IMG/VR virus record: IMGVR_UViG_2778261657_000006
Span: 1 to 33,734 of that record
DNA length: 33,734 bases
Source: a virus
Lineage: Duplodnaviria > Heunggongvirae > Uroviricota > Caudoviricetes
Direction: 5' to 3' (one strand)
The notes beneath the pieces are model-generated. The model ran no database searches, was not told the DNA's origin, and saw only the letters and a list, made by a program, of their open reading frames with translations. Below are positions 4,060-33,734 of this stretch, piece by piece; the stretch's first letter is position 1; every line of letters begins with the position of its first letter. A program made the translations under genes and the position numbers.

Positions 4060-4234
4060 GGCTGTGGGTGCTTGAGGCTATCTGCCTCGGGCATGAACAC
4101 CAACGGCAGATAGAGAAAAGCCCCAGTTAACATTACGCGTCCTGCAAGACGCTTAACATTAATCTGAGGCCAATTTCATGCTAGACACATGTAGGTTAGC
4201 CTCTTACGTGCCGGAAGGCAAGGAGAAGCAGGCT

Positions 4235-4390
4235 ATGAAGCAGCAAAAGGCGATGTTAATCGCCCTGATCGTCATCTGTTTAACCGTCATAGTGACGGCA
4301 CTGGTAACGAGGAAAGACCTCTGCGAGGTACGAATCCGAACCGGCCAGACGGAGGTCGCTGTCTTCACAGCTTACGAACCTGAGGAGTAA
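4235..4390 (+). CDS. hokD: Hok/Gef-family membrane toxin (type I toxin), HokD/RelF-like
   Basis: 51-aa product MKQQKAMLIALIVICLTVIVTALVTRKDLCEVRIRTGQTEVAVFTAYEPEE: single N-terminal transmembrane helix plus the conserved Hok motif (TRK.LCE.R...G..EVAAF.AYE). The ORF track extends it in frame to 4178, but the recognisable Hok protein begins at the internal Met. Confidence 0.8.
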   Translation: MKQQKAMLIALIVICLTVIVTALVTRKDLCEVRIRTGQTEVAVFTAYEPEE

Positions 4391-6651: not shown

Positions 6652-6681
6652 TTGACCAGACACATTGTCCGGGGCTATATT
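6652..6681 (+). promoter_or_regulatory. Candidate late promoter pR' (TTGACC - 17/18 nt - TATATT) just after Q
   Basis: Direct reading. Position matches lambdoid pR'. A hairpin at 6689-6706 (cgccag-caaaat-ctggcg) lies in the predicted leader. Confidence 0.45.
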
Positions 6682-6741
6682 CCTCACGCGCCAGCAAAAT
6701 CTGGCGTCGGGATTGGCGTCCCGGATGAAAAAGGCGACAAC

Positions 6742-6763
6742 AGACGCGCCAGCGTCTTTTTTA
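6742..6763 (+). terminator. Candidate tR' rho-independent terminator (end of a short 6S-like leader transcript)
   Basis: agacgc-gcca-gcgtct stem followed by ttttttatt, about 80 nt downstream of the candidate pR'. Confidence 0.5.
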
Positions 6764-6920
6764 TTGTCGTTTGCACTGTCACATCTCAATGGTGGGCTGT
6801 GTGGGGGCGGAGCGATCCGCGCCGGTTCCTTTTTCCCGGTTACGCCAACCCTGCACAGTTCACCACCATACTGATTGGCGTCAGCAGTGGTGATGATTCA
6901 CATAGAAAAAGGATCATCCT

Positions 6921-10119: not shown

Positions 10120-10254
10120 ATGTCAGATAGCATTATAAAACTGGCGCGAATTCTCTGTGTGGTTGTTGGCCTTTCATTTTCAGCAATGTTGGTTGCCATT
10201 TTCATTTCCACCGCCTGGCGAGTATTGAGCTTATCCGGATTGATTGGTGGATAG
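10120..10254 (+). CDS. Small membrane protein (44 aa)
   Basis: ATG at 10120 within track ORF 10027..10254. Single transmembrane helix (ILCVVVGLSFSAMLVAIFI). Confidence 0.3.
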   Translation: MSDSIIKLARILCVVVGLSFSAMLVAIFISTAWRVLSLSGLIGG

Positions 10255-10258
10255 TGAG

Positions 10259-10441
10259 ATGAAGCGAAAACACTGGACACACAGAATGCCGCGAACGGCG
10301 GCGAAATGGGCACTGGTAGCGATACTGGTGCCTTTTTTCCTGGTGGGATGCGTCAGCCTGGATAAGGCGCGCCAGCTTTTCGATACGGCCTCGCAGGTCT
10401 GCGAAATTGTCGAAAGTGCCAGGCAGTGTATGCAGAACTGA
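10259..10441 (+). CDS. Small lipoprotein (60 aa): possible o-spanin-like or exclusion lipoprotein
   Basis: Signal peptide with lipobox FLVGC (MKRKHWTHRMPRTAAKWALVAILVPFFLVGC...). Confidence 0.45.
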   Translation: MKRKHWTHRMPRTAAKWALVAILVPFFLVGCVSLDKARQLFDTASQVCEIVESARQCMQN

Positions 10442-10528
10442 TCGCCTGTAAGAACAGAATATTGTTGAATCTAAATTTACTTTGAACAGTGGCCCGGATG
10501 GAAAGGGCATCTAAATAGGAGCAGAAAA

Positions 10529-10738
10529 ATGTTAACTGTAAAAGTCATGTCTCAAAATGGTGGGGAAGAGATCCATTGCGGGCGTAGCATTGGCTATCAT
10601 CCAGAGCAGCGGAGTATTGCCGTATCGGGAAAGGATGGGAAAGTCATTCTGAAAGATGGAGATATTGCTTATGTAATGAACCAAAACGCTCAAATAATAT
10701 CTGTTTATCGGCCCAATAATAGTCAGAAAAACATTTGA
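10529..10738 (+). CDS. Hypothetical protein (69 aa)
   Basis: AGGAG ribosome-binding site 8 nt upstream. Lies in an AT-rich cargo region. No recognisable family. Confidence 0.45.
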   Translation: MLTVKVMSQNGGEEIHCGRSIGYHPEQRSIAVSGKDGKVILKDGDIAYVMNQNAQIISVYRPNNSQKNI

Positions 10739-10861
10739 ATTTCGCAAGGCCAAAGTTCAGTGGTGATCGTTATCAACTAATTGAAATAACAAGCTTATGT
10801 TTGTGTAATTGGTGATATAGCATGTTAATGCTGAATATCAGCGTCAACATGGAGTTATACA

Positions 10862-11077
10862 ATGGTTTTTAAACACTATTACGTGAACAAAAATGCTCAG
10901 AGCAATGGCGATCATGAGGTGCATGCTGAGGAATGTTCATATCTTCCTGCTGTAGCTAACCGCGATTACCTTGGTTACTATAGTGATTGTTCTTCGGCGG
11001 TAACAGAGGCAAAGGCCAAAGGATATTCCCGGGTGAATGGTTGCTATTGGTGTGCCAATAAGTGCCACACGTCTTAA
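10862..11077 (+). CDS. Hypothetical small Cys-rich protein (71 aa)
   Basis: GGAG ribosome-binding site upstream. Cys residues at CSYL, DCSS, GCYWCANKCH suggest a metal-binding or disulfide-stabilised fold. Followed by a clean terminator. Confidence 0.5.
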   Translation: MVFKHYYVNKNAQSNGDHEVHAEECSYLPAVANRDYLGYYSDCSSAVTEAKAKGYSRVNGCYWCANKCHTS

Positions 11078-11096
11078 TCAATTGTCAATAAACCAT

Positions 11097-11120
11097 AAAG
11101 GCCGCTCTGCGGCCTTTTTC
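11097..11120 (+). terminator. Rho-independent terminator
   Basis: ggccgc-tct-gcggcc stem followed by tttttc. Confidence 0.6.
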
Positions 11121-11140
11121 ATGTTAAAAAAGATTGCGGC

Positions 11141-11177
11141 ATTACAGCAGCCCTTCACTCTAAGGGGCTGCTGTAAT
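11141..11177. repeat. 13-bp perfect inverted repeat (attacagcagccc / gggctgctgtaat) with an 11-nt loop
   Basis: Direct reading. Followed by two copies of aataaaaaaccgg (about 11185 and 11319). Confidence 0.5.
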
Positions 11178-11499
11178 GTGAGAAATAAAAAACCGGTCAC
11201 AGGGAGCAGCTACACAGAACCGGCCGGCGAAGACCGCCAATACCACCCATGCATTGATGCAACATACTAATTACAATAGCCGCTATTGATGTAAATGCAA
11301 TGTTATGCATCGACGAAAATAAAAAACCGGCAGGGGAAATCCATTGAAGATTTGCCGGTGGCAAAAGAGGGCCATGTTTTTAACCTTAGTCGCAGAGTTA
11401 CGGAGTGCAACTACGAATGCTGCCGGTATATGGCTGAATGGCGTTTCAATGATGTACGTCATCTTATCTGTAAATGTTAATGATAAACGCTCTCATTTG

Positions 11500-11560
11500 T
11501 GCGGGTCCTCCCGGTGTAGTGGCCTTACCACGGGGCGGGAGCGGCGCGGAAAACGGCTAG
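11500..11560. other. Putative cos site (cosN-like)
   Basis: cgggtcctcccggtg...acggggcgggagcggcgcgg resembles the lambda cosN region (cgggtcctttccggtg...acggggcggcgacctcgcgg) as recalled from memory. Lies about 200 bp upstream of the terminase small subunit gene with AT-rich DNA in between. Confidence 0.45.
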
Positions 11561-11717
11561 TTTTTTGCATTTTCATGGTGGCGGCAGCATGTGAGGTAAT
11601 TTATTGATAATTAAAAGCTATTTCCATTTTCACCTGTACAATATTTTTTTCTCCCTGTCATTAGACCAGTTTGCAATTGATTGATATATATAAATAAATC
11701 TGATTTTTACCTGCCGG

Positions 11718-12266
11718 ATGGAGTTGCCTATGTCAAATGTGATTGGGATCGGTGATGCTTATCACTGGAGTGTTTTTAAAATCGCCGAGGCTTTTGGACT
11801 TCATCGGGACACAGTAAAAAAACGTCTCCTCGCAGCCAACACTCCTGTGGCTGCAACTGTCAAAGGAAACCCCGTTTATGCCCTGCAGCATGTCGGCCCT
11901 GCCCTGTTTGGCCCGAAGCATGAGGCAGTAGACTCTGTTCATGATCCATCCCGGATGGAGCCGAAAGAGAGAAAGGACTGGTACCAGTCTGAAAATGAAA
12001 GGATCAAGCTGGAAAAGGAACAGCGAAAACTCATCCCTGTCGATGAAGTGGTCATCGTCTATTCATCCATGAGAAAGGCTGTCGTTCAGGTTCTGGAAAC
12101 CATTCCGGATATTCTGGAACGCGATTGCGCCCTGACTCCTCAGGCTGTTGGTGTCGTACAGCAGGCCATTGATGACCTGCGATACACCCTTCAGGAAAAA
12201 TCCTACGAGGCCTGTGCTGCTGAATTAATTTCTGATGAGGAAGGAGAGAGTCTCGAGGAGGAATAA
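11718..12266 (+). CDS. Terminase small subunit (Nu1-like)
   Basis: N-terminal helix-turn-helix-like region and acidic C-terminus. Immediately upstream of, and overlapping, the large terminase start. The likely true start is ATG 11730, which has a GGAG ribosome-binding site. Confidence 0.65.
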   Translation: MELPMSNVIGIGDAYHWSVFKIAEAFGLHRDTVKKRLLAANTPVAATVKGNPVYALQHVGPALFGPKHEAVDSVHDPSRMEPKERKDWYQSENERIKLEKEQRKLIPVDEVVIVYSSMRKAVVQVLETIPDILERDCALTPQAVGVVQQAIDDLRYTLQEKSYEACAAELISDEEGESLEEE

Positions 12267-14365
12267 TGGGTTTTTCATCAGCCCGAAACCTTGGCAGGGA
12301 CATATCTGCAGGATTTTCCCCACCACGTCGTATGCCGATTTCGGAGGCTGTTAAAAAATTCATGCGTGTTCCCAAAGGGGCTGGTAACTCGGTACCATGG
12401 GATCCTGAACTGACACCCTACATCATTGAGCCCATGAACTGCCTGGCATCGCGTGAATACGATGCGGTGATTTTTGTTGGCCCTGCGCGGACAGGGAAGA
12501 CCATCGGTCTGATCGATGGATGGATTGTCTATACCATCGTTTGCGATCCTTCGGACATGCTCGTCGTGCAGATGACCGAAGATAAGGCCCGCGAGCATTC
12601 TAAAAAGCGGCTCGACAGAACGTTCAGAAGTAGTGCGGCGGTAAAGAAAAGAATGAGTCCACGTCGTAACGATAATAATGTCCATGATAAGACGTTTAGG
12701 GATGGCTCGTTCCTTAAAATTGGTTGGCCCTCGGTCAACATTATGTCATCGTCGGATTACCGGTTTGTCGCCTTAACCGATTATGACCGTTTTCCGGAGA
12801 ATATCGACAGCGAGGGTGATGGTTTCTCCCTGGCCTCAAAACGTACCACCACATTTATGTCCGCCGGAATGACTCTGGTGGAGAGCTCGCCGGGACGTGA
12901 CATCTGTGACAGCAAATGGCGACGTAAGTCGCCCCATGAAGCGCCACCGACGACCGGTATTCTTTCCCTTTACAATCGTGGTGATCGCCGCCGCTGGTAC
13001 TGGCCATGTCCGCACTGCGGTGAATATTTTCAGCCAGCCATGGATACCATGACCGGCTATCGGGATGAACCAGATCCCTTTAAAGCCAGTGAGGCAGCGT
13101 ATCTACTTTGCCCGCACTGCAGCGGCGTTATCACTGCGGATAAAAAGCGTGAGCTCAATAGTGCAGGAGTCTGGTTGCGTGAAGGTCAGGACATTGATTG
13201 TAACGGCAACATTTCCGGTGAACCGCGCCGCTCCCGTATCGCCAGTTTTTGGATGGAGGGGCCCGCTGCCGCTTATCAGACCTGGGCGCAACTGATTTAT
13301 AAGTTGTTGACCGCCGAACAGGAATACGAGGCAACCGGAAGCGAAGAAACACTCAAGACGGTTATCAATACCGACTGGGGATTACCTTATCTTCCCCGCG
13401 CCAGCATGGAGCAACGAAAAAGTGAACTGCTTGAGCAGCGGGCGGAGCCAGTTCCTTCCCGCAGTGTGCCGGATGGCGTTAATTTCCTTGTGGCGACGGT
13501 GGATGTACAGGCGGGACGTCATCGCCGTTTTGTGGTTCAGGTAACGGGCTATGGTAGTCGCGGCGAGCGCTGGATAGTTGATCGTTACAACATCACGCAG
13601 TCGTTACGTTGTGACAATAATGGAGAAAGCCTGCGTATTGACCCTGCCGGTTATCCGGAAGACTGGGATGTCCTGCTGACGGATGTTTTTCATAAAAGCT
13701 GGCTGCTGGCCTCCGATCCTTCTCAACAAATGCGACTGATGGCAATGGCGGTGGACTCCGGCGGTGAAGACGGGGTCACTGATAATGCCTATAAATTCTG
13801 GCGTCGTTGCCGTCGTGATGGCCTTGGTAAACGTATTTACCTGTTTAAGGGCGACAGCATCCGGCGCGCAAAACTGATCACCCGTACATTCCCTGATAAC
13901 ACCGGACGAACGGGCCGACGGGCGCAGGCTGCGGGTGATGTGCCTCTCTGGCTTCTTCAGACTGACGCTCTGAAAGACCGGGTTAATAACGCGTTATGGC
14001 GTGATTCTCCCGGTCCTGGCTATGTGCATTTTCCCGACTGGCTGGGGAGCTGGTTTTACGACGAATTGACGTATGAAGAGCGGAGCAGTGACGGGAAATG
14101 GAGTAAGCCGGGGCGCGGTGCGAACGAAGCCTTTGACCTGATGGTGTATGCCGAGGCGCTGGTCATTCTGCATGGGTACGAGAAAATTCAGTGGCCTGAT
14201 GCGCCGGAGTGGGCGTGCCGGGAAACCTGGCTGGAGTGTGTCAGTGACAACGCGGAGCCACCTGTTCTGCCGGAGCCGGAACGTCCCCCGGCCAGAAAGA
14301 AGAAACGAAAAAAAATGGCACCCGATGAGGATAACCCCTGGGTGACATCCGGAGGATGGTTATGA
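12266..14365 (+). CDS. Terminase large subunit (lambda gpA family)
   Basis: 699 aa. Walker A-like VGPARTGKT, CPHCG zinc-ribbon-like motif as in lambda gpA, ATGA overlap with the small subunit stop. Confidence 0.8.
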   Translation: MGFSSARNLGRDISAGFSPPRRMPISEAVKKFMRVPKGAGNSVPWDPELTPYIIEPMNCLASREYDAVIFVGPARTGKTIGLIDGWIVYTIVCDPSDMLVVQMTEDKAREHSKKRLDRTFRSSAAVKKRMSPRRNDNNVHDKTFRDGSFLKIGWPSVNIMSSSDYRFVALTDYDRFPENIDSEGDGFSLASKRTTTFMSAGMTLVESSPGRDICDSKWRRKSPHEAPPTTGILSLYNRGDRRRWYWPCPHCGEYFQPAMDTMTGYRDEPDPFKASEAAYLLCPHCSGVITADKKRELNSAGVWLREGQDIDCNGNISGEPRRSRIASFWMEGPAAAYQTWAQLIYKLLTAEQEYEATGSEETLKTVINTDWGLPYLPRASMEQRKSELLEQRAEPVPSRSVPDGVNFLVATVDVQAGRHRRFVVQVTGYGSRGERWIVDRYNITQSLRCDNNGESLRIDPAGYPEDWDVLLTDVFHKSWLLASDPSQQMRLMAMAVDSGGEDGVTDNAYKFWRRCRRDGLGKRIYLFKGDSIRRAKLITRTFPDNTGRTGRRAQAAGDVPLWLLQTDALKDRVNNALWRDSPGPGYVHFPDWLGSWFYDELTYEERSSDGKWSKPGRGANEAFDLMVYAEALVILHGYEKIQWPDAPEWACRETWLECVSDNAEPPVLPEPERPPARKKKRKKMAPDEDNPWVTSGGWL

Positions 14366-33153: not shown

Positions 33154-33734
33154 TGGCATTCAGAATGAGTGAACAACCACGGACCATAAAAATTTATAAT
33201 CTGCTGGCCGGAACTAATGAATTTATTGGTGAAGGTGACGCATATATTCCGCCTCATACCGGTCTGCCTGCAAACAGTACCGATATTGCACCGCCAGATA
33301 TTCCGGCTGGCTTTGTGGCTGTTTTCAACAGTGATGAGGCATCGTGGCATCTCGTTGAAGACCATCGGGGTAAAACCGTCTATGACGTGGCTTCCGGCGA
33401 CGCGTTATTTATTTCTGAACTCGGTCCGTTACCGGAAAATTTTACCTGGTTATCGCCGGGAGGGGAATATCAGAAGTGGAACGGCACAGCCTGGGTGAAG
33501 GATACGGAAGCAGAAAAACTGTTCCGGATCCGGGAGGCGGAAGAAACAAAAAAAAGCCTGATGCAGGTAGCCAGTGAGCATATTGCGCCGCTTCAGGATG
33601 CTGCAGATCTGGAAATTGCAACGGAGGAAGAAACCTCGTTGCTGGAAGCCTGGAAGAAGTATCGGGTATTGCTGAACCGTGTTGATACATCAACTGCACC
33701 TGATATTGAGTGGCCGACTTCACCTGCAGAGTAA
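33153..33734 (+). CDS. tfa: Tail fibre assembly protein (Tfa chaperone)
   Basis: 193 aa directly downstream of, and overlapping, the stf stop. Typical Tfa position and size. Confidence 0.8.

Follow-up and report, generated by a model that had tools for sequence, protein, structure and literature searches.

A widespread unannotated hairpin family at the junction of the lysis/accessory and packaging modules in enterobacterial lambdoid prophages

Identification of the junction hairpin

The DNA analysed here is a 33,734-nt stretch of a Caudoviricetes virus (IMG/VR record IMGVR_UViG_2778261657_000006, positions 1 to 33,734; hereafter the window), the given strand of which is the late-gene direction of a lambdoid prophage. 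Between positions 10450 and 11720, an earlier reading made from the letters without database searches (the sequence-only reading) had listed two open reading frames (ORFs) with ribosome-binding sites, a terminator, a perfect inverted repeat, a repeated motif and a cos-like stretch, and all of these were recovered. The inverted repeat, at 11139–11179 on the plus strand, was found to be one member of a family of hairpins of approximately 39 nt. This hairpin is a conserved sense-strand element at the 3′ border of the lysis/accessory block, and its edges are module junctions. New here are the widespread, unannotated family and its clear association with mosaic junctions; its function is one that we infer. 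The region 10450–11720 is interpreted as an accessory zone that separates lysis from packaging functions in a prophage with lambda-type cos. Its four kinds of parts are a two-gene cassette closed by a terminator, one copy of the hairpin, two terminator-like hairpins directed towards the minus strand, and cosQ-cosN-cosB; taken jointly, this is the best explanation, with moderate confidence. In its overall architecture the region is an ordinary prophage region; cos, moron-like cargo and terminators need no new biology.

The repeat in the window is perfect over 14 bp, not the 13 bp first read, with arms at 11140–11153 and 11165–11178 separated by 11 nt. By simple arithmetic, a perfect short-loop repeat of this length is expected approximately 1e-4 times by chance in 1.3 kb. 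As RNA, it forms a 17-bp helix spanning 11139–11179 with a folding energy of −29 kcal/mol. The family covariance model, R1, scored 53.6 bits on the plus strand and 41.8 bits on the minus strand at this position. The plus strand continues after the stem with GAGAAAUAAAAAA, and on the minus strand UCUUUUUU follows the repeat after 8 nt, a U-run coming only at that distance; a U-run placed right after the stem and kept in relatives, as in an intrinsic terminator, was found on neither strand. As the sequence-only reading had stated, the repeat and the repeated motif described below are blank in the RefSeq and GenBank records and have no Rfam match.

Searching IMG/VR with ATTACAGCAGNCCTTCA matched at least 120 contigs, which shared a near-constant block of approximately 39 nt, GCATTACAGCAGCCCTTCAGTGAGGGGCTGCGATAATG, while both flanks were unrelated between contigs. 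BLAST with this block detected 21 phage records, including phiP27, cdtI, phi458 and Fels-1, in which it is unannotated; Klebsiella and Edwardsiella phages also carried it, at 85–90% identity. In the phages matched by BLAST, the hairpin was always situated between the last lysis or accessory gene and HNH, terS or the cos region. A pattern scan using one genome per species returned 46 loci, 37 of which had a stable hairpin of the family and represented approximately 35 species of Enterobacterales, with genera including Citrobacter, Klebsiella-like, Erwinia, Pectobacterium, Rahnella, Hafnia and Edwardsiella. The other 9 matches lay outside Enterobacterales and mostly had little or no stem, two of them (Phormidium and Psychromonas) being unrelated palindromes; these 9 act as a built-in control. 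A short-query search of E. coli genomes gave 77 genomes, near-exact copies alone being returned under the E-value limits, and this number is no measure of prevalence.

Family members have a lower stem (GCAUUA/UAAUGC), usually a 2 × 2 internal loop (CA/GA), an upper stem of 10 bp whose sequence is free, and a loop of 3–7 nt. The internal loop is closed in approximately 19% of copies; a Salmonella copy closes it in another way than the window, via AA/UU. In the window, UG replaces GA and the loop is closed, which explains why the repeat had appeared perfect to the sequence-only reading. The geometry is 6 bp, a 2 × 2 loop and 10 bp in the family and 17 continuous bp in the window.

A sample of 80 IMG/VR loci encoding the same small terminase was collected regardless of the hairpin, and a search of these terminase-anchored loci with the covariance model detected it in 24. 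An Rfam search on the hairpin region of a relative gave nothing credible, and a literature search with the hairpin and cos sequences as text strings found no relevant paper. A further search for prophage small RNAs (sRNAs) near terminase or endolysin genes found just a preprint on Pas sRNA, whose loci lie by Q/holin and outside the zone studied here. The family is undescribed, being absent from Rfam 15 and, as a sequence string, from the searchable literature.

Conservation of structure and strand

Base pairing was maintained in 98.1% of cells among 37 distinct sequences and in 97.9% in a 24-sequence set that added diverged variants. Five pairs in the latter set changed on both sides, for example from C-G to G-C, C-G to A-U and G-C to A-U. 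The covariation score was reached by none of 500 column shuffles, and controls with slid partners paired at 33–54%. Entire upper stems were replaced in variants found with the model (AAAGCCACUC/GAGUGGCUUU) and in Enterobacter loci anchored by protein (AAGCUCAU/GUGGGCUU), and in both cases CAUUACA...GAUAAUG was retained.

The upper stems of 50 distinct variants from a strand-symmetric search contained 421 Watson-Crick, 75 G.U and 5 A.C pairs. The late-sense strand folded better in 43 of these variants, with a mean advantage of 4.3 kcal/mol. The excess of G.U pairs and the better folding of the sense strand indicate that the fold is selected on this strand. Overall, the structure appears to be under selection, with good comparative support.

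Position at module junctions

A stop triplet was present within 16 nt upstream of the hairpin at 175 of 185 sites, approximately half being expected by chance. When the 40-nt flanks were clustered, 51 types on the left and 60 on the right were seen in 80 combinations, and one left type was joined to 9 right types. When the window was compared with its relatives, the homology breakpoints fell at the first and last bases of the hairpin. There was usually one copy per prophage region, and orientation and position relative to stop codons were constant.

In three loci, two direct copies of the hairpin bracketed small cassettes. They were 1) a DUF2560 gene in Klebsiella phage ST846-OXA48phi9.2 (L208, 1691–2041); 2) two genes, 805 nt, between Rz and HNH-terS in an Ewingella prophage (L239, 1265–2108); and 3) an 86-nt remnant in Enterobacter (L262, 3372–3496).

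In most contexts the hairpin lacks a following U-run and is therefore not an intrinsic terminator. The suggestions that the inverted repeat is a minus-strand terminator or a stand-alone sRNA were not supported, as the flanks are unrelated in relatives, no U-run is conserved and the G.U pairs fit the plus strand. A protein-binding role, which the sequence-only reading had also suggested, is plausible. A larger structured RNA across the whole region was rejected: fold z-scores were alike for the two strands (−2.9 and −3.4) and were dominated by one hairpin.

Two side observations concern the hairpin family. In another common context, exemplified by locus L131 (2060–2165), a conserved C-rich stretch (CACCCGCCGCGCACCCAGCGCAC) comes next after the hairpin and precedes a plus-strand intrinsic terminator; this context was also seen in L139, L142, L156, L176, L189, L100, L141 and Salmonella L243. 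The combination makes up an sRNA-like unit of approximately 110 nt; it had no match in Rfam. A weak extra match to the family model was found inside terS of the window at 12157–12184 on the plus strand (UACAGCAGGCCAUUGAUGACCUGCGAUA; 20 bits, rough E approximately 1e-3), which may be due to chance or to distant relation.

Repeated motif and hairpins X and Y

Downstream of the hairpin, the 14-nt motif AAATAAAAAACCGG occurs at 11183–11196 and 11317–11330, two copies against 0.01 expected, a number reached in none of 100 shuffles. On the minus strand it reads CCGGUUUUUUAUUU and directly follows a hairpin in both copies, comprising a U-tract and the base of the stem. Copy 1 together with hairpin X (11192–11224) occupies 11183–11224 and is weakly terminator-like on the minus strand, with the tail UUUUUUAUUU; the energy of X is −11 to −16 kcal/mol, and its stem differs from relative to relative, with 8 bp deleted in the L003 type. 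Copy 2 with hairpin Y (11326–11359) occupies 11316–11359 and is terminator-like on the same strand, being followed by UUUUUUAUUUU. Hairpin Y (−13.5 to −17 kcal/mol) is nearly invariant in 30 variants, and a T-to-C change in it produces a G.U pair when the minus strand is read. In L046 and L017, diverged Y-like hairpins were observed directly after an Rz stop codon.

X and Y each have the form of a hairpin plus U6AU3-4 on the minus strand. The idea that the repeated motif belongs to minus-strand terminators is plausible in view of this form, but no promoter or consistent gene to go with it was found. X and Y would stop antisense transcription coming from the cos side from entering the late genes, as an antisense insulator; that they are antisense-directed terminators, or remnants thereof, is suggested with low to moderate confidence.

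The motif copies bound a 134-bp segment (11197–11330) that has the character of a mosaic insertion or deletion. It is present in the window, L003, L007, L074 and phiSTEC1575-Stx2k and absent from phage cdtI and 10 IMG/VR loci; owing to this variable presence, the motif copies are regarded as indel borders. The indel may have arisen either by recombination between two similar terminators or by slippage loss between the copies. On its minus strand, the segment contains a 37-aa hydrophobic ORF (11201–11314, MHNIAFTSIAAIVISMLHQCMGGIGGLRRPVLCSCSL) that ends exactly at the U-tract of X and looks like a type I toxin. This candidate was rejected because only 18 aa of the ORF are left in the L007 type, the 8-bp deletion of the L003 type shifts its frame, and it has no ribosome-binding site.

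The sequence from 11360 to 11500 is a variable spacer to the left of cos, with 83% identity between types, a 2-bp indel and one invariant block (GGCGTTTCAATGAT, 11441–11454). A gene in 11377–11501 was sought in six frames and not accepted: synonymous fractions of 20/51 and 18/48, against approximately 25% expected, were not significant after multiple testing, the mild excess sat in two frames that share wobble positions, and indels break both. A tblastn search with the minus-strand ORF required a frameshift in the Stx2k phage. Lambda bor was also considered as the source of the minus-strand terminator or ORF and was dismissed, no DNA or protein similarity being found. An 87-aa frame at 11344–11607 on the plus strand spans the predicted cos cut and is uninterrupted in every variant examined, the 2-bp indel notwithstanding; codon-position bias is lacking, and the frame is probably no gene.

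Possible function of the hairpin

It is the late-sense strand that forms the hairpin, most likely in late mRNA, RNA being presumed rather than single-stranded DNA. In the long late transcript, the hairpin would serve as a processing and/or 3′-stabilising signal that marks the lysis/accessory block at its 3′ end. It would also act as a homologous-recombination linker at which left and right modules and small gene cassettes (morons) are swapped; this role is suggested by the approximately 40 bp that are nearly identical in otherwise unrelated phages, a length sufficient for phage recombinases. A late-mRNA processing or stability signal doubling as a recombination linker is put forward as the favoured function.

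Stem-loops cut by RNase III between T7 genes, such as R1.1, and hairpins that stabilise 3′ ends are the basis of the first comparison. The junction hairpin resembles the T7 sites in being intergenic in a long polycistronic phage mRNA and in having a helix of approximately 18 bp with a small internal loop, conserved pairing and a free upper stem. It differs in that the lower-stem and internal-loop sequence of the family shows much stronger conservation than any known requirement of RNase III and in that the internal loop is closed in the window copy; the likeness is one of geometry.

The closest published parallel is PeSL of T4-type phages (Arbiol et al. 2010, PMC2839356), a short conserved intergenic stem-loop found at the edges of indels and replacements of small accessory genes, where it is proposed to bring about modular shuffling through recombination. 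The junction hairpin likewise stands at reassorted flanks and brackets cassettes. PeSL combines a strong early promoter with a terminating stem-loop and has many copies per genome, whereas the junction hairpin has neither promoter nor U-tract, usually occurs once and is part of the late operon in temperate siphoviruses. For these reasons, identity with PeSL was rejected.

Several points weigh against the favoured function and the evidence on which it is built. The hairpin is missing in 56 of the 80 loci with the same terminase (70%), and it is absent from the lambda right end (45900–48502) and from the DLP12 stretch of K-12 (574000–584000), indicating that it is dispensable. Being closed in approximately 19% of copies, including that of the window, the internal loop cannot be essential. 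The pattern of the species-genome scan fixed the lower stem, which introduces ascertainment bias; for the lower stem, the case for conservation comes from the fewer copies located through the model or through protein anchors. The double-sided changes cluster in a few clades and represent few independent events, and the shuffle control ignores relatedness, which inflates the statistics on structure and strand. G.T wobble is tolerated in single-stranded DNA too, and the strand bias is no proof of RNA. As to the neighbouring structures, hairpin X is weak, and for X and Y the scan found no minus-strand promoter, candidates picked by eye having spacers of 11–14 nt. Every functional step for the hairpin and for X and Y is something that we infer.

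One alternative is that the hairpin works at the DNA level, as a folded single strand or cruciform bound by a recombinase or another DNA-binding protein, with attC-like cassette exchange mobilising the adjacent small genes. The conserved stem base, conserved unpaired spacer and free upper stem are consistent with such a site, as are its position right after the stop codons of many unrelated genes, the direct copies around the one-gene cassette of L208 and the two-gene cassette of L239, and the strand-specific G.T tolerance, which would suit a folded top strand. However, integron-type core sites (GTTRRRY/RYYYAAC) are lacking in the hairpin sequence, the contexts inspected contain no linked recombinase gene, nearly all prophage regions have a single copy, and ordinary homologous recombination over 40 identical bases explains the mosaicism with no dedicated enzyme, which leaves this alternative unlikely. 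Integron attC itself is similar in being an imperfect hairpin directly after cassette ORFs that folds in a single-strand-specific manner and in which the base of the stem is conserved, a spacer is unpaired and the upper stem varies; the junction hairpin was not accepted as an attC because the core is absent, no integrase is found among the inspected neighbours and each element usually has one site. The strongest form of this alternative, a dedicated cassette-exchange mechanism whose site is attC-like in function and unrelated in sequence, is considered quite improbable. Such a mechanism would let Enterobacterales prophages gain, lose and swap morons and whole lysis/packaging modules, and the paired copies in Klebsiella, Ewingella and Enterobacter prophages would be its footprints; both statements share that low probability.

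The repeat, X and Y might instead all belong to minus-strand transcription, either as a terminator stack for an sRNA or small protein gene between cos and 11317 or as the terminator of the sequence-only reading. X and Y are canonical hairpins with a U-tract on the minus strand, UCUUUUUU follows the window repeat there after 8 nt, a 52-aa minus-strand ORF is called by PGAP in an E. coli relative with a mildly raised synonymous fraction in its frame (18/48), and the toxin-like 37-aa hydrophobic ORF lies in the 134-bp segment. Against this, the plus-strand sequence 5′ of the hairpin is unrelated across the family, leaving no conserved minus-strand U-run; wobble pairs favour the plus strand by 75 to 5; neither strand has a sigma-70-like promoter within 10200–11900; the common L003, L002 and L007 variants have frameshifts or truncations in the minus-strand ORFs; and no Rfam, Pfam or PHROG match was obtained. 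This explanation is regarded as about as unlikely as a DNA-level site. Slightly less probable than either is that the hairpin has no function here and is a neutral or selfish remnant copied by recombination, the stretch of X, Y and spacer being decaying junk from past module exchanges. The element is dispensable, as its absence from 70% of same-terminase loci, lambda and DLP12 shows; the 134-bp, 8-bp and 2-bp indels and broken ORFs point to decay; and the very high identity between genera could mean recent transfer. Nevertheless, pairing is kept through compensatory and wobble changes, the helix is retained even where upper stems are fully replaced, and orientation and placement relative to stop codons are constant, which argues for selection on structure and not drift.

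The hairpin is of interest as a short, structure-selected element that is almost unchanged across prophages of many enterobacterial genera, including phages associated with Stx, Cdt and carbapenemase strains, and that is located exactly where these prophages reshuffle their lysis, accessory and packaging modules. Should it prove to be a signal for late-mRNA processing or stability, the lambdoid late operon would gain a conserved point of post-transcriptional control. Should it be mainly a recombination linker or cassette site, the old "module boundary" idea of lambdoid mosaicism, and the movement of morons such as virulence cargo, would have a concrete sequence behind them that can be tested. 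It is also a ready candidate for a new RNA-motif family entry.

The cos site and packaging genes

The stretch that the sequence-only reading had likened to lambda cosN was aligned to the lambda record itself, and 11501–11556 was found to align to lambda cosQ/cosN. With slashes marking the predicted ends, the window reads GCGGGTCCTCCCGGTG(16 nt)ACG/GGGCGGGAGCGG/CGCGG and lambda reads ACGGGTCCTTTCCGGTG(15 nt)ACG/GGGCGGCGACCT/CGCGG; directly to the left of the end, the window has CCACG/GGGCGGGAGCGG/CGCGG where lambda has TTACG/GGGCGGCGACCT/CGCGG. Around the site, 15 of 28 positions are identical. The cosQ-like block, GCGGGTCCTCCCGGTG, is at 11501–11516 (+), and GGGCGGGAGCGG is the predicted 12-nt cohesive end at 11533–11544 (+), with nicks placed by lambda homology at 11532/11533 on the top strand and 11544/11545 on the bottom strand. 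Between cosN and terS, a cosB-like leader (11545–11717, +) is highly conserved over 56 distinct terminase-family sequences, among which cosN is invariant. The leader contains a direct repeat, AGTTTTTTGCATTTTCA and AGCTATTTCCATTTTCA, at 11559–11575 and 11616–11632, 57 bp apart, which are candidate binding sites for the small terminase.

From approximately 11501 to the start of terS, the block was present at 85–97% identity in the 78 of the 80 loci that retain upstream sequence, whereas unrelated sequence types lie to the left of 11501 among terminase-family loci. This pattern, conserved rightward and mosaic leftward, places the left edge of the packaging module at 11501. The GenBank record of phage cdtI ends with GCCTGCCACG and begins with GGGCGGGAGCGTCGCGG, its start being equivalent to 11533; the record of phage Tritos, an independent deposit, ends with CTGCCACG and begins at the same base. 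Tritos is a virion-producing LF82 prophage (LF82/Tritos paper). Both record starts are indirect evidence for the virion ends; the Tritos paper is silent on whether its ends were mapped experimentally. In phiSTEC1575-Stx2k, the hairpin/X/Y module of the window stands in front of the exact lambda cos sequence.

The small terminase subunit gene (terS, DUF1441; 11718–12266, +) matched PF07278 (E 2e-44) and phrog_141, "terminase small subunit" (E 3e-65). The large subunit gene (terL; 12266–14365, +) belongs to the lambda gpA family, with matches to the ATPase PF05876 (GpA_ATPase, E 2e-81) and the nuclease PF20454 (GpA_nuclease, E 3e-85). With the order and spacing of lambda, a GGGTCCT..CCGGTG block is followed by ACG/GGGCGG....../CGCGG, a leader of approximately 175 bp and terS-terL, and the prophage is contiguous across the site. 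It differs from lambda in that the 12-nt end matches at 7 of 12 positions, the small subunit is DUF1441 and not Phage_Nu1, and the cosB sequence is unrelated to the lambda R/I1 sites.

The alignment to the lambda ends, the conserved block, the cdtI and Tritos record starts, the gpA-type terminase and the placing of the hairpin/X/Y module before lambda cos in phiSTEC1575-Stx2k bear out the cosN-like stretch, and a lambda-type cos with a predicted 12-nt cohesive end at 11533–11544 is accepted. It follows, as had been proposed, that the prophage in the window is contiguous, its lysis end leading directly into its terminase end. Beside the same sequence, terS is frameshifted and terL truncated in several E. 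coli relatives, as would be expected of a relic in a phage that is defective or packages otherwise; given that terS and terL are intact in the window, that the cosQ-cosN-cosB block is conserved whole and that Tritos makes virions and has a record starting at the cos site, a relic is very improbable. The location of cosN is useful mainly for annotating this terminase family.

Two small genes and their terminator

Two small genes precede the hairpin. The first, orfA (69 aa; 10529–10738, +), is an accessory gene immediately behind the lysis genes and has AGGAG 8 nt before its start. It belongs to phrog_3909 (E 9e-37), had no match in Pfam, NCBIfam or PADLOC, and has homologues in 29 clusters, every one from Enterobacterales. 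Its position after the lysis genes is the same in Salmonella and Enterobacter prophages, with adjoining packaging modules of Nu1, DUF1441 or Terminase_4 type.

The second, orfB (71 aa; 10862–11077, +), has GGAG 8 nt upstream and encodes a small Cys/His-rich protein with 5 Cys that belongs to phrog_4298 (E 4.5e-32). With both genes assigned to families, the description of them as orphans no longer holds. At least 812 full-length homologues of orfB were detected at 57–75% identity in Bacteroidota, Acidobacteriota, Vibrionaceae and others, and also in Salmonella. Residues H18, H21, C25, C43, C61, C64, C68 and H69 are invariant, and the family, of approximately 68 aa, has the invariant pattern YYVNKNAQxNGDHEVH...C...C...GCxxCxxxCHT. 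No match was found in Pfam, NCBIfam, PADLOC or PDB sequences, and Foldseek comparison of the AF2 model (pLDDT 93) with PDB gave no fold neighbour at E<1. As a very conserved Cys/His protein that has neither family annotation nor structural neighbour, orfB is a second lead for further work. A promoter-like site, TTGAAA-17-TGTAAT, at approximately 10783–10811 before orfB was read by eye and was left unscored by the promoter tool.

The cassette is closed by a bidirectional intrinsic terminator at 11097–11122 (stem 11097–11117), composed of a 9-bp stem with 6 GC pairs, a 3-nt loop and TTTTT, with a folding energy of −14 to −15 kcal/mol; it was scored on both strands. The order of terminator followed by hairpin recurs in unrelated loci, for example L008 and L259. 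The orfA-orfB cassette is present in just 6 of the 80 terminase-family loci, and in Salmonella it is joined to a Nu1-type terminase.

Owing to its low GC content, its own terminator and its presence or absence among relatives, the pair is probably moron-like cargo. Morons are a concept of Juhala and Hendrix, and lambda bor is the one that neighbours cos. Like morons of lambdoid phages, the pair consists of additional genes of low GC that lie between lysis functions and cos, have a terminator of their own and occur in some relatives but not in others. The pair differs in lying on the late-sense strand, in having no bor similarity and in having a promoter seen by eye only.

Composition and surroundings of the region

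The description of the region as AT-rich applies to 10600–11100, where GC is 0.34–0.45, and not to 11100–11600, where it is 0.42–0.51; flanking genes are at approximately 0.47–0.57. In the region, 8 sites of the intrinsic-terminator type were scored, against 1.8 expected. A scan of 10200–11900 for sigma-70-like promoters found none on either strand. Rfam 15 gave no gathering-level match in 10400–11760, and at E<=10 just terminator and miRNA models at chance level appeared.

Upstream of the region are two holins (PF16931 and PF05449), a GH108 endolysin and three small ORFs associated with lysis; a gene of Rz type was not identified in this cassette. The last lysis-associated ORF (10244–10441, 65 aa) belongs to phrog_7528 and has a lipobox, LVGC; it may encode an o-spanin-like protein or a unimolecular spanin lipoprotein. 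Further upstream of the lysis genes, isrK, a1b1 and C4-type RNAs were matched at gathering level in Rfam at 6675–6870 on the plus strand, in agreement with the plus strand being late-sense. Other Rfam matches at this level in the window were the sok antitoxin RNA at 4066–4240 and, at the far end, IS009 at 33496–33694; IS009 is reported to be frequent near the prophage sRNA PasB (2026 preprint).

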